A DNA stretch of 64,000 nt from Escherichia coli. GTDB taxonomy: Bacteria; Pseudomonadota; Gammaproteobacteria; Enterobacterales; Enterobacteriaceae. The DNA is taken from assembly GCF_002854065.1 (NCBI RefSeq), contig NZ_CP024150.1; one strand, 5' to 3'. Position numbers: made by a program. This document shows, piece after piece, positions 33,601 to 36,600 of the stretch. Each line of letters begins with the position of its first letter. Positions within the stretch are counted from its first letter, which is position 1.

Positions 33601-36600
33601 AATTGACGGCGGTGCACTCATGGCACGCAGGCAGTGTTGAATAAACATCCGTTTTGGGGTGTTTTTTTAATCTTTTTGGGATTTAAATTCCTATCGATTA
33701 AATTCCTATCGATGAACCGAAGAGCACGGCGGTGCGGAGTCCGGAGAGTAACGGCATAGCAGAGAGCTTCGTGAAAACGATAAAGCGTGACTACATCAGT
33801 GTCATGCCCAAACCAGACGGGTTAACGGCAGCAAAGAACCTTGCAGAGGCGTTCGAGCATTATAACGAATGGCATCCGCATAGTGCACTGGGTTATCGCT
33901 CGCCACGGGAATATCTACGGCAGCAAGCCAGTAATGGGTTAAGTGATAACAGGTGTCTGGAAATATAGGGGCAAATCCAGAAGGTATCCCTTCGGGTTTT
34001 TGCTTAATTGTTCCTCCTAAACCGGATGGAGACATTGCAGGATTAGGTTTGTGAGTGGATGCATAGTCATATACTGCACCTCCAGCCCCCCCCAGCAGCT
34101 GCTACAATTCCTCCTGCAACAAATTGCCCGGATAGTGTTCCTATAGCCATCGCAATATCACGCCCTGAAGCACCACCAGAAACAGAATCTAATTCATTTA
34201 GAGTCAGAGTTCTCATATGATCTCCTTTTTATCTTATCGGATATTGAATAATAATTATCACCAACAAAGTAACATATTGCAGACATTAATGCAGAGAAGC
34301 AAAATGTATGCATGGATAAAAAGTCCTTTCCTCTAAAAACACAATCATATATAGCTAATGCAATATATATTGCGGTGGCATTTATTATAAATGCAAATAA
34401 CAAATCTAATTTTGTTCTTTTTCTATCCATTACTTTCTATCCATTACTTTCTATCCCATTACCACACAAACACTAACGATAATGATTATCGTTCACATAA
34501 TCAAGAGTGAAGGGTAGGCGGCCCTCACCCCCCTATAAGGGGTCCGCTTGGAAAACGGATTTTCCCACGTCAAGAGAATTGAGTTGAACGAGTGGTTACA
34601 TCCAAGCCTGCTAACTCACTGAACGTAAAGGATGTACGAAATGTTCCTACCGTCCGATAACCATTTGGCTTACTTCCGTACATTCCCTTGCGTAGATGTT
34701 CAGAATTGTACGATTTCGGACACCAAAACCGCTGTTGTCCCGCCATTCTGGCGATTCCTGAAAGTCATTTGACTAAAAAATAGTCTTAACGTGGTTTATT
34801 TTCCGAATTCCAAGCGCCCCCCCTACATTTATACAATGTCCTGCAGGGCATAGAAGTGGCGAAAGAAAATACCTGGGCGAAGCCGCTGAACATCATTCTG
34901 GCGATTTCAATAAAGGTACTTGCTCGCGCTCTGTCATTTTCTGAAACTCTTCATGCTGCATTTCGATTTTCCTTCTAAGATCATAACTCGCATACCTGTT
35001 CTTTTTATGTATATCTATTTTTGTGACGAGTTCAAACCACGATGTTCGCACTCCCCATGCAGCGTTATGAAACATTTCCGCAACGGCTATAGAGTCTGTA
35101 TTAACTGCTTCGGTCATGTAGTCGCTAATACGTTCAGCGGTAATTTTCGTTATTTCATCGTAATTCATTTTATCTCCTACAAGATTATTTAATGGAATGC
35201 AAAATATCTGGTCTGATAATAATGTTCCAGAATTAATATCTGCAGGCTATGTTAAGTTGTCCCCACACACAATCTACCTGTTTTCTCGTGTGTGCCACAG
35301 ACGCAATACATAAATAGTCTGGCCATTAATTTCGTAACGGATTTCGTACTCGCCAGCAAAAATCCGTCTGATCTCCCTGGGCTCAAACTGAAACAACTGT
35401 TCTCCCATACGTGGATGAGTTAACAGAATGACCGGTGCCTGTGTCAGGGACTGTACCGTTCTGGCGGCAGCAGGTTTACTGGCCAGCACCAGAAAATCAT
35501 ATAACCGCGCCAAATCAGAAAGCGCCTTACTGGTCCACTTCAGTTCCATCAGCGTGGCACCGGTAACGGATTGTCAGTACTGAGGCTGTCCGCCCAGGCC
35601 TGTACAGCCTGATGATCGATAACCTGTCCGGATGTCACATCGTCCAGGGCTTCCAGCGTCAGGCGATTACGCTCCTCCTCCTGGGCAAGCCATGCAGAAA
35701 GCGCCTGTTTGATAACCCAGCCCCGGGAGCGTTCCAGCTTGGCGGCCATCTGGTCGATTTTATCAGCCATAGGTAATGGCACATGCGCGGTAATTACTTT
35801 TGTTGCTTGTGCACTATTGTTTTTCATTTGCATATCCGATTAGTTGTTAATCATATTTAATCATAGTGATTACTTTCAGACGGAACAAGGCAAATAATGC
35901 GCGTCAGCGCATGTAAGGCGGCACGCTGTGGTTACATGTGATACCGGAGTAAAACCGCCGAAGCCCGGCGTAAGCCGGTACGGATTGATAGATTTCACCT
36001 TACCCATCCCTTGCCCTGCCAGACCATACCCGTTTTCAGCCATGAGAGAGCTTCTGTGCGCGGTCGGAGTGGTCCCGACGAGGGTTTATCCGAAGTCGGG
36101 GCGTATCTCCGCGTTAGCGGGCCGTCAGGGCCGCTTACGAGCGTGTACTCAATACTTCCAGCGAGAAGACTGACAGCGATGACGGGTATAGTTACAACAT
36201 TCATAATTAAAAGCGACTCTGTTCCGGCCCTTTGGGCCGGGACGGGGCCGCTTTTCAGTTATGAGGGAGGGGCTTTGTGGTTTCGGTTCTGCGCTGGACC
36301 GGGGTTTTTCCGGAGGTTGTCTTTGTGTGTTGTAACTAAAGTGGCTCCGGTCGGAGCCCGCCGCTTGCGGTGGGAGGTGCATATCTGTCTGTCCACAGGA
36401 CAGGCAGTGAATAGGTTTTCTTTTTAAATGAATGTAATTAAGTAGTTTAAAGGAGATATAAACAGGTGTTTAAAGGATATATTGCACCCTGTAAGACTGG
36501 CGGCTGGCGCTTTATGATATGAACGGTTGTAACCTTATGGGGAAGTCCCTTGCAGTTAAATGTGGATAAGCAAAATTCCCCGTCGCTGAGGCGTATTTTG

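Follow-up and report, generated by a model that had tools for sequence, protein, structure and literature searches.

The question raised by this locus is what kind of element is repeated in an Escherichia coli plasmid (assembly GCF_002854065.1, contig NZ_CP024150.1), of which a stretch of 64,000 nucleotides, here called the window, was analysed. Two similar non-coding sequences occur in it, one near the replication origin oriR (copy 1) and the other upstream of mcbA (copy 2). A preliminary description had offered three identities: a single-strand initiation or promoter-type structure, a small RNA, or one end of a so far unrecognised mobile element. We consider that the repeat is probably the leading-strand start module of an IncFII replicon, in which copy 1 would be a primase-dependent G site and copy 2 a decaying relic.

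Both copies lie on the plus strand, and positions 35915-36026 align with 51984-52074 in the same orientation. The core of the repeat (35965-36026 versus 52013-52074) matches at 56 of 62 positions (90%) and was recovered by a blastn search against the whole window with E = 1e-19, while in a left part (35915-35943 versus 51984-52012) the copies agree at 24 of 29 positions (83%). Copy 1 has an additional 21 nt at 35944-35964 (CCGGAGTAAAACCGCCGAAGC), flanked by short direct repeats CCGGnGTAA. The 62-nt core and the 29-nt left part therefore give a shared stretch of 91 aligned nt, so the repeat first described as about 75 bp long is real, slightly longer than thought and begins about 25 nt further to the left. 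The motif quoted for it was found as TTTCACCTTACCCAyCCC..GCCCTGCCAGACCA, and the ACCGGC-GTAA-GCCGGT hairpin lies at 52012-52027, with a version one pair shorter at 35965-35978 in copy 1. The placements also held, with copy 1 situated ~355-470 bp beyond oriR and copy 2 ending 254 bp before the mcbA ATG (52329). Neighbours of the two copies are a toxin-antitoxin pair, oriR, an acyltransferase and mcbA.

The replicon around copy 1 has the following features. The strand of repA1 defines the orientation of the replicon, and oriR is reported to span 188 bp (Masai et al. 1983).

36183-36213, minus strand: Ter-like site (AATTATGAATGTTGTAACTATACCC) between oriR and copy 1, with core GTTGTAAC at 36191-36198
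36319-36344, plus strand: second Ter-like site, in opposite orientation (TTTGTGTGTTGTAACTAAAGTGG), with core GTTGTAAC at 36329-36336
36382-36569, minus strand: oriR, with DnaA box TTATCCACA at 36561-36569 (conserved block 1 across replicons)
36745-37614, minus strand: repA1, the IncFII initiator, an ORF annotated as repA in near-identical plasmids
37687-37778: CopA RNA

Copy 1 is part of a larger module of hairpins and short motifs with the following parts.

35897-36026, plus strand: full module, from hairpin A through the CCCTGCCAGACCA motif, ~130 nt, candidate G site
35897-35912, plus strand: hairpin A, of the ATGCGCG-TC-AGCGCAT type, with compensatory changes at 4 of 7 pairs across genera
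35917-35959, plus strand: hairpin B, GGCGG (35917-35921) with CCGCC (35955-35959) around a loop of ~33 nt
35965-35978, plus strand: hairpin D, CCGGC-GTAA-GCCGG, conserved with compensatory variants
36014-36026, plus strand: invariant CCCTG (T at 36017) and CCAGACCA, the 3' edge of the module and the proposed primase start

An alternative local hairpin, CGCCG/CGGCG at 35956-35970, overlaps the 3' arm of hairpin B.

Conservation of copy 1 is very wide, and not limited to the replicon at hand. At 90% identity or above it has matches in more than 5000 IncF plasmids, nearly all of them ~1.5-1.9 kb from the start of records that begin at repA, and in E. coli genomes it occurs at 6589 plasmid places versus 47 chromosomal ones. 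More distant relatives were compared in a set of 19 IncFII-like replicons from Pantoea, Erwinia, Yersinia, Citrobacter, Klebsiella, Hafnia and others, whose RepA proteins are ~75% identical. In this set the module lies downstream of repA, and the conserved block downstream of oriR terminates at it. Copy 1 thus closes the conserved block of the IncFII basic replicon at its far end (the 'repA4 region'); it is ordinary IncFII backbone, already-known biology and not specific to this plasmid. The plasmid maintenance of pEC958 was found by TraDIS to need the repA4 region (PMC4398462).

All 19 replicons share one architecture: three hairpins, a spacer of ~35 nt, an invariant CCCTG and then CCAGACC. 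The tetranucleotide CCTG is invariant (19/19), the CCCTG of copy 1 occupying 36014-36018, and its CTG stands ~36 nt from the last hairpin. Across the alignment 93.9% of the cells of the three hairpins are paired, with compensatory changes at 5 pairs. The observed covariation score was reached by none of 500 shuffles, and pairing fell to 27-51% when the 3' partners were slid out of register; the cells scored as unpaired are mostly alignment register shifts. Hairpin B (helix 2 of the replicon alignment) is paired in 99% of cells and has a compensatory GGTGCC/GGCACC variant, and hairpin D appears as CCCGC/GCGGG in C. braakii and as GCGGC/GCCGC in Hafnia. A covariance model of the module matched copy 1 at 35889-36033 with 94.9 bits. 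The hairpin structure of copy 1 is therefore well supported by covariation. Folding energies tell less: when both strands of both copies were folded as single-stranded DNA, copy 1 had z-scores of -1.8 and -1.5, and copy 2 of -0.2 and -0.6, so that thermodynamics alone gives no support for a structured element; the term 'structured' in the preliminary description is upheld for copy 1 by covariation. The covariation reads equally for either strand and for DNA or RNA, and a comparison of G-T with A-C mismatches in the hairpins, tried as a test of the functional strand, was uninformative. The most conserved stretch of the region is 36066-36145, just outside the module (column identity 0.90-0.99), and this block could be the true priming signal instead of the module.

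The position of the module fits a leading-strand start. Its invariant CCTG lies 365 bp from the inferred end of oriR, and the TACTG of R100-type replicons 400 bp, both beyond the two inverted Ter-like sites. In R1 and R100 the leading strand starts ~380-400 bp from oriR, at a G site that is said to be a primase-dependent, G4-type single-strand initiation signal. Two ter sites sit between oriR and the leading-strand start (PMC10331603). Copy 1 resembles the G site further in having several stem-loops on one strand followed by a CTG on their 3' side, in lying on the leading-strand template beyond oriR and two ter sites (with oriR taken as 188 bp), and in being surrounded by a repA4 region needed for stable maintenance. 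It differs in that no CTG directly follows its last hairpin, where it reads TACGG in place of the TACTG of R100-type replicons and copy 2. Since our searches for the coordinates and sequence of the R1 G site in the literature gave indirect statements only, the identification was made on position and architecture, and it is from these that we infer a primase start at copy 1. Copy 1 would then correspond to the 'G site' reported for R1/R100 (Masai & Arai 1989; Bernander et al. 1992; Nomura et al. 1991).

On this reading, RepA and DnaB would open oriR, and unwinding would pass the two Ter sites and render the template strand single-stranded. The module on that leading-strand template would then present three short hairpins, a single-stranded spacer of ~35 nt and the invariant 5'-CCCTG-3', of which the hairpins and the CTG may be recognised by DnaG primase, as at the complementary-strand origin of phage G4. 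The leading strand would be extended from the DnaG primer away from oriR, with copy 1 (35897-36026) as the working copy of this plasmid's replicon. In canonical F-like plasmids the strand used as leading-strand template is the transferred strand as well.

At the G4 origin, three stem-loops of single-stranded DNA precede a CTG on their 3' side, and it is at the T of this CTG that primase begins (PMC6783573). The plasmid module shares the arrangement of stem-loops and CTG, and the last hairpin and TACTG of the R100 type resemble G4 stem-loop I and CTACTG (CGGCGTAAGCCG versus CGGCGAAAGCCG). However, the G4 fold is far more stable (z = -4.2 versus -1.8 to -2.4), and its CTG stands 3-6 nt from the hairpin, compared with ~36 nt for the invariant CTG of the plasmid module. 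The G4-like spacing, with a CTG directly after hairpin D, occurs only in R100-type replicons and copy 2. Smith-Waterman alignment against the G4 origin on both strands gave best matches of 12 nt and 9 nt, no better than shuffles, and no significant similarity emerged when the R100-type module was compared by BLAST with 50,697 phage records.

The covariance model also finds a full-length paralogue of the module adjoining oriT in R100 and CP099116 (44-46 bits), between an SLT gene and a DUF932 gene. Its hairpins show compensatory changes, including the CCCGC/GCGGG form of hairpin D, CCTGCCAGACCA is identical to the module, the 13-mer CCTGCCAGACCAT is identical to that of copy 1 and CCCTG is kept. 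The paralogue matches 4185 plasmid records and lies on the transferred strand, at a place where priming on single-stranded DNA would be expected. Of the first of the three proposed identities, the initiation half is thus favoured for copy 1 by the covarying hairpins, the invariant CTG and the position, and is strengthened by this paralogue; the promoter half gained nothing, as a promoter scan found no promoter-like hexamer pair within either copy.

That copy 2 is truncated, and a decaying relic instead of an intact second element, had escaped the preliminary description.

51984-52074, plus strand: copy 2, a truncated orphan of the module, 31.8 bits with the covariance model

Of the module it retains hairpin D, TACTG (52027-52031), CCCTG (52062-52066) and, from hairpin B, the 5' arm only; hairpin A is missing, as are the 21 nt holding the 3' arm of hairpin B, so that one complete hairpin is left. 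Full-length matches to copy 2 are confined to ~100 mcb plasmids. In TO217 plasmid 3 copy 2 runs leftward into a truncated tir, and this stretch of 510 bp is 91.6% identical to the R100-type region. Copy 2 itself has 93.4% identity to the R100 type in addition to the 21-nt deletion, and is less conserved than the adjoining tir pseudogene, whose remnant is 96.0% identical. Further orphan fragments of the same region occur in CP099116.1. Copy 2 is a decayed orphan fragment that plasmid mosaicism has left next to the microcin B17 (mcb) genes, and is most likely functionless. It is a remnant of the equivalent region of another, R100-type replicon. In that replicon the mcb operon would have taken the place of the ori side, and the tir side would later have been deleted for the most part. 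Copy 2 and the additional fragments of CP099116.1 resemble the orphan replicon fragments of mosaic F plasmids, such as the incomplete RepFIC of F, in being partial, diverged pieces of IncFII-type replicons away from any repA; copy 2 differs in being only 91 nt long and comprising just the core of the priming module. A duplication of copies 1 and 2 by insertion of the mcb island was considered and rejected, because an mcb-free relative, which lacks copy 2, differs at other breakpoints and because the source of copy 2 is a tir-linked region of the R100 type.

A bolder view of copy 2 would make the module a portable priming cassette, strand-specific and present at several places on the transferred strand of F-like plasmids, with copy 2 as a minimal working third made up of one hairpin and a CTG. 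We hold this to be improbable. If it were true, the replicon G site and the oriT-adjacent paralogue would be the two conserved places, and copy 2 would re-prime DNA synthesis, perhaps during complementary-strand synthesis in the recipient, or where the fork meets the head-on transcribed mcb operon.

Other functions of the conserved sequence must be weighed against priming. The requirement for the repA4 region in the TraDIS data, the near invariance of the neighbouring block and a strong sequence conservation that extends to unpaired positions of the module would suit a double-stranded protein-binding or stability site, with the palindromes as recognition sequences, that serves stable inheritance and not priming. 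We judge such a site unlikely, since the compensatory changes preserve pairing and not sequence, the oriT paralogue is on the transferred strand, where a function in single-stranded DNA is expected, and the invariant CTG fits primase. The edges of the repeat are suggestive in another way: copy 2 ceases to be homologous exactly at ...CCAGACCA, 8 nt beyond the CTG, and the left edge of copy 1 is the joining point of differing modules (tir-pem, RHH/RelE, stbDE). Together with the other orphan fragments, these edges could mark a recombination hot spot or module boundary, e.g. where the nascent leading strand has its 5' end, with the second site not selected. As an account of the repeat this is rather improbable, and it agrees with a priming module instead of contradicting it. 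No site for a recombinase could be recognised, and plasmids differ in the left junctions of copy 2, which indicates no single site-specific event.

The two remaining identities of the preliminary description, a small RNA and a mobile-element terminus, fared worse. The covarying hairpins would form in RNA too, and copy 1 has two minus-strand, terminator-like hairpins with T-rich tails (35970-35956 and 35912-35897), so that a small RNA, or a minus-strand terminator for read-through from repA/repA4, was a candidate. An RNA element is nevertheless very unlikely: Rfam 15 gave no match at E <= 10 in 35600-36700, chance-level matches only in 51700-52400 and, at gathering thresholds across the whole window, nothing relevant to the repeat, and neither copy has a promoter-like site. 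An intrinsic terminator was likewise rejected, as the T-tracts are absent from homologues in other genera and copy 2 has no terminator-like site. So was a single-stranded DNA promoter of the Frpo type. Frpo of the F leading region is also non-coding, repeated in one plasmid and active on the transferred single strand, but it is one ~330-nt stem-loop that rebuilds -35/-10 boxes for RNA polymerase, whereas folds of the module show short hairpins only. We give almost no credence to an unrecognised IS or transposon end, or to the 3' end of a genuine RepA4 coding sequence. The copies do form direct repeats flanking a 7.5-kb mcb and toxin-antitoxin segment in canonical mcb plasmids, and the 3' end of the 'RepA4' ORF predicted by PGAP overlaps the module. 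Against a mobile element, the window holds no inverted copy, no transposase or target duplication was found at the junctions, the element keeps its place relative to repA across thousands of plasmids and the mcb-free relative differs as described above. The RepA4 coding hypothesis was rejected because no reading frame survives the one-nucleotide indels between genera, and the ORF is split in the window into pieces of 69 and 77 aa with no NCBIfam match.

The repeat is thus the backbone of a very well studied replicon together with a recombination scar, rather than a new mobile element or RNA. In thousands of records its likely leading-strand start module carries no annotation or is wrongly labelled as 'RepA4' or as a hypothetical protein, and annotators can spot it by three covarying hairpins and CCCTGCCAGACC. 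The oriT paralogue, so far unannotated in more than 4000 plasmids, may be of use to plasmid annotators too; as complementary-strand priming in recipients has been described as still unclear (PMC9849209), it offers a concrete site to test.

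The repeat that the preliminary description had pointed out, one copy beside the IncFII oriR (copy 1) and the other upstream of mcbA (copy 2), is real, and the hairpin and motif quoted for it are both present in the sequence. The two copies share the same orientation and a similarity far beyond chance (blastn against the whole window, E = 1e-19): the core at 52013-52074 is identical to 35965-36026 at 56 of 62 positions, and a left part at 51984-52012 matches 35915-35943 at 24 of 29. The two parts are contiguous in copy 2 and separated in copy 1 by 21 further nucleotides (35944-35964). 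A 9-nt direct repeat, present as CCGGAGTAA and CCGGCGTAA, flanks the difference, which thus looks like a slipped-strand deletion in the copy 2 lineage. No third copy was found by sequence and covariance-model searches of the whole window.

The distribution of its matches identifies copy 1 as replicon backbone. A 161-nt query around it matched at least 5000 plasmid records, all over the full length and with at least 90% identity, mostly ~1.5-1.9 kb from a record start set at repA. In complete E. coli genomes, the sequence occurs at 6589 plasmid places versus 47 chromosomal ones. The order in R100-type plasmids is pemK-pemI-tir-element-repA4 ORF-oriR-repA, and in some records an ORF overlapping copy 1 is named "replication-associated protein RepA4". 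According to the literature, the repA4 region holds ter sites and matters for stability, and TraDIS found it to be needed for maintenance of pEC958 (PMC4398462). The surroundings of copy 1 in the window are:

37687-37778, + strand: CopA RNA
36745-37614, - strand: repA1
36561-36569: DnaA box TTATCCACA
36319-36344, + strand: Ter-like site with GTTGTAAC core at 36329-36336
36183-36213, - strand: Ter-like site with GTTGTAAC core at 36191-36198
35274-35833: RHH/RelE-type toxin-antitoxin pair, beyond copy 1 when counting from the Ter-like sites

R1 likewise has an inverted Ter-like (Tus-binding) pair, terRL/terRR; the pair here lies between oriR and copy 1.

Among 32 loci encoding RepA relatives, sampled as one genome per species, conservation in the non-coding DNA downstream of repA falls into two blocks: oriR, and a block from ~36280 to ~35955 whose alignments often end just past the hairpin at 35965-35978. 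This pattern was seen in Pantoea, Erwinia, Mixta, Izhakiella, Yersinia pestis, Citrobacter, Klebsiella, Enterobacter, Buttiauxella and Hafnia. An alignment of 19 replicons gave a module of ~130 nt (copy 1, ~35897-36026, + strand) with the following parts:

35897-35912: hairpin A
Hairpin B: GGCGG/CCGCC or GGCGCC/GGCGCC stem, ~33 nt enclosed
35965-35978: hairpin D, CCGGC-loop-GCCGG
Spacer of ~35 nt, then CCCTG (invariant in 19/19 sequences), then a mostly conserved CCAGACC

In these helices 93.9% of cells are paired, with both-sided changes at five pairs, and the apparent mismatches are mostly register shifts in three sequences. The covariation score was reached by none of 500 shuffles, and sliding the 3' partners reduced pairing to 27-51%. 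Folding energy by itself is unimpressive as support for structure (z of -1.8 for copy 1, -0.2 for copy 2 and -4.2 for the phage G4 origin, oric). Next to copy 1, towards oriR, ~80 nt at 36066-36145 are the most conserved part of the replicon downstream region in the 19 replicons (column identity 0.90-0.99, above both oriR and the module). They include a near-invariant GGGGCGTATCTCCGCGTTAGCGGGCCGT and may belong either to the priming signal or to the stability determinant of "repA4".

R1-type plasmids replicate in one direction only. In R1, a primase-dependent signal for priming, called the G site, is located ~380-400 bp downstream from oriR, and it resembles the complementary-strand origin of G4. 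In the 1983 work of Masai et al., oriR is said to span 188 bp starting at the DnaA box. With oriR taken at this extent, the invariant CTG of the module (T at 36017) lies 365 bp past its end, and in R100-type copies the TACTG next after hairpin D is 400 bp past it. The fork leaves repA leftward in the window, which makes the + strand the template of the leading strand, and on it the hairpins are 5' of the CTG. In R1-type plasmids the ter pair sits between the minimal origin and the leading-strand start (PMC10331603). G4ori has three stem-loops with a CTG located 3' of them, and the T of this CTG is where primase begins (PMC6783573). Position, strand and architecture together make the module a candidate R1/R100-type G site, an assignment we regard as probable but well short of certain. 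Its sequence similarity to G4 oric is not significant, and the G4-like CTG directly behind the last hairpin varies among copies, copy 1 having TACGG there. Of the identities proposed earlier, a single-strand initiation structure suits copy 1 best, given its covarying hairpins, invariant CTG, strand and distance from oriR.

A mobile-element terminus had also been suggested, and would call for features that are missing here: there is no inverted partner, target duplication or transposase, and the position in the replicon is fixed. As for a small RNA or terminator, the - strand of copy 1 has two terminator-like hairpins; their T-tracts are lost in other genera, a terminator scan found no such site at copy 2, and an Rfam search with both copies gave no match, leaving the proposed small RNA without support. 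A promoter scan detected a hexamer pair in neither copy, and what we take to be the mcb "gearbox" -10 (CGGCAAGTA, 52254-52262) lies ~180 bp right of copy 2. One-nucleotide indels between genera leave no conserved reading frame, and the ORFs have no protein-family match.

Copy 2 is flanked on one side by an acyltransferase gene, which adjoins parMR, and on the other by the AT-rich mcbA promoter region (mcbA ATG at 52329). Its full-length matches are confined to ~100 plasmids, all with mcb. Canonical 69-kb mcb plasmids have the order parMR-acyltransferase-copy 2-mcbABCDEFG-DUF6710-RelE/antitoxin-copy 1-oriR-repA. A close mcb-free relative lacks a 6.86-kb segment containing copy 2, with breakpoints not at copy 2 but 110 bp left of it, and a ColV plasmid matches the acyltransferase flank up to ~51975, diverging thereafter. 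The copy 2 of TO217 plasmid 3 extends leftward into hairpin A and then a truncated tir gene. This remnant is 91.6% identical over 510 bp to the R100-type tir-element region (tir part 96.0%, copy 2 part 93.4%), and the R100-type homology stops exactly at ...CCAGACCA, where mcb sequence starts. Since copy 2 is less conserved than tir and has undergone the 21-nt deletion, which takes away the 3' arm of hairpin B, it bears no sign of selection. Other orphan IncFII distal fragments occur in the 82-kb plasmid CP099116.1, one of 288 bp (80997-81270) that adjoins an RHH/RelE pair in the vicinity of RepFIB, and another, degenerate and 93 bp long (6805-6896), in the msrQ to resD-ccdAB interval. The tir linkage, the divergence and these orphan pieces mark copy 2 as a decaying fragment, a scar of F-plasmid mosaicism. 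It retains hairpin D, TACTG and CCCTG, and might keep some residual priming activity.

Several other features of the window were observed. A 1331-bp element, annotated as IS2-family in related plasmids, is present at 52586-53916 and 30886-32216 (95.6% identical). Where canonical mcb plasmids have 2058 bp of mcbB-mcbC-mcbD, this plasmid has the former copy, and its microcin B17 operon is therefore probably defective. A solo 267-nt right end of the element (33713-33979) abuts the colicin V gene. This gene is split (33802-34430 region): one ORF has 49 aa, and another reads on into the IS fragment. The immunity gene, cvi (34194-34430), seems intact. Within traD, 48193-48414 consists of ~20 tandem 9-bp units of TGGCTGTTG, which on the - strand read CAACAGCCA and encode Gln-Gln-Pro repeats. 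Directly after traD comes parMR; by this gene order, the junction is missing the bulk of the tra region and the leading region. Long inverted repeats of 94-100% identity (1-426 and 11764-12189; 3881-4295 and 57276-57690; 30392-30723 and 63437-63766) point to more IS copies or rearrangements, and the last pair adjoins the hok/sok locus (sok 63758-63914).

A covariance model built from the 19-replicon alignment gave copy 1 a score of 94.9 bits and copy 2 one of 31.8 bits, and revealed full-length paralogues (44-46 bits, E ~1e-10) by oriT, between an SLT-domain gene and a DUF932/DUF945 gene:

R100, 49945-49799, - strand: oriT paralogue
CP099116.1, 63601-63747, + strand: oriT paralogue

In the paralogue, hairpin A is almost unchanged, hairpins B and D have compensatory changes (GGCC/GGCC and CCCGC/GCGGG), and CCTGCCAGACCAT is identical, with similarity ending there. 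Comparison with it shows the module as a discrete unit ending at ...CCAGACCA. The paralogue matches 4185 plasmid records, with no annotation at its position among the matches listed. Gene orientations in R100, CP099116.1 and pU15A_B place the replicon and oriT copies both on the transferred strand, and F and R100 have known single-strand initiation signals (PMC7690428). The second location by oriT supports a putative role of the module in ssDNA priming. The biology of the module is that of a classic replicon, already known in kind; the by-products are a usable module signature and an unannotated oriT-proximal paralogue.
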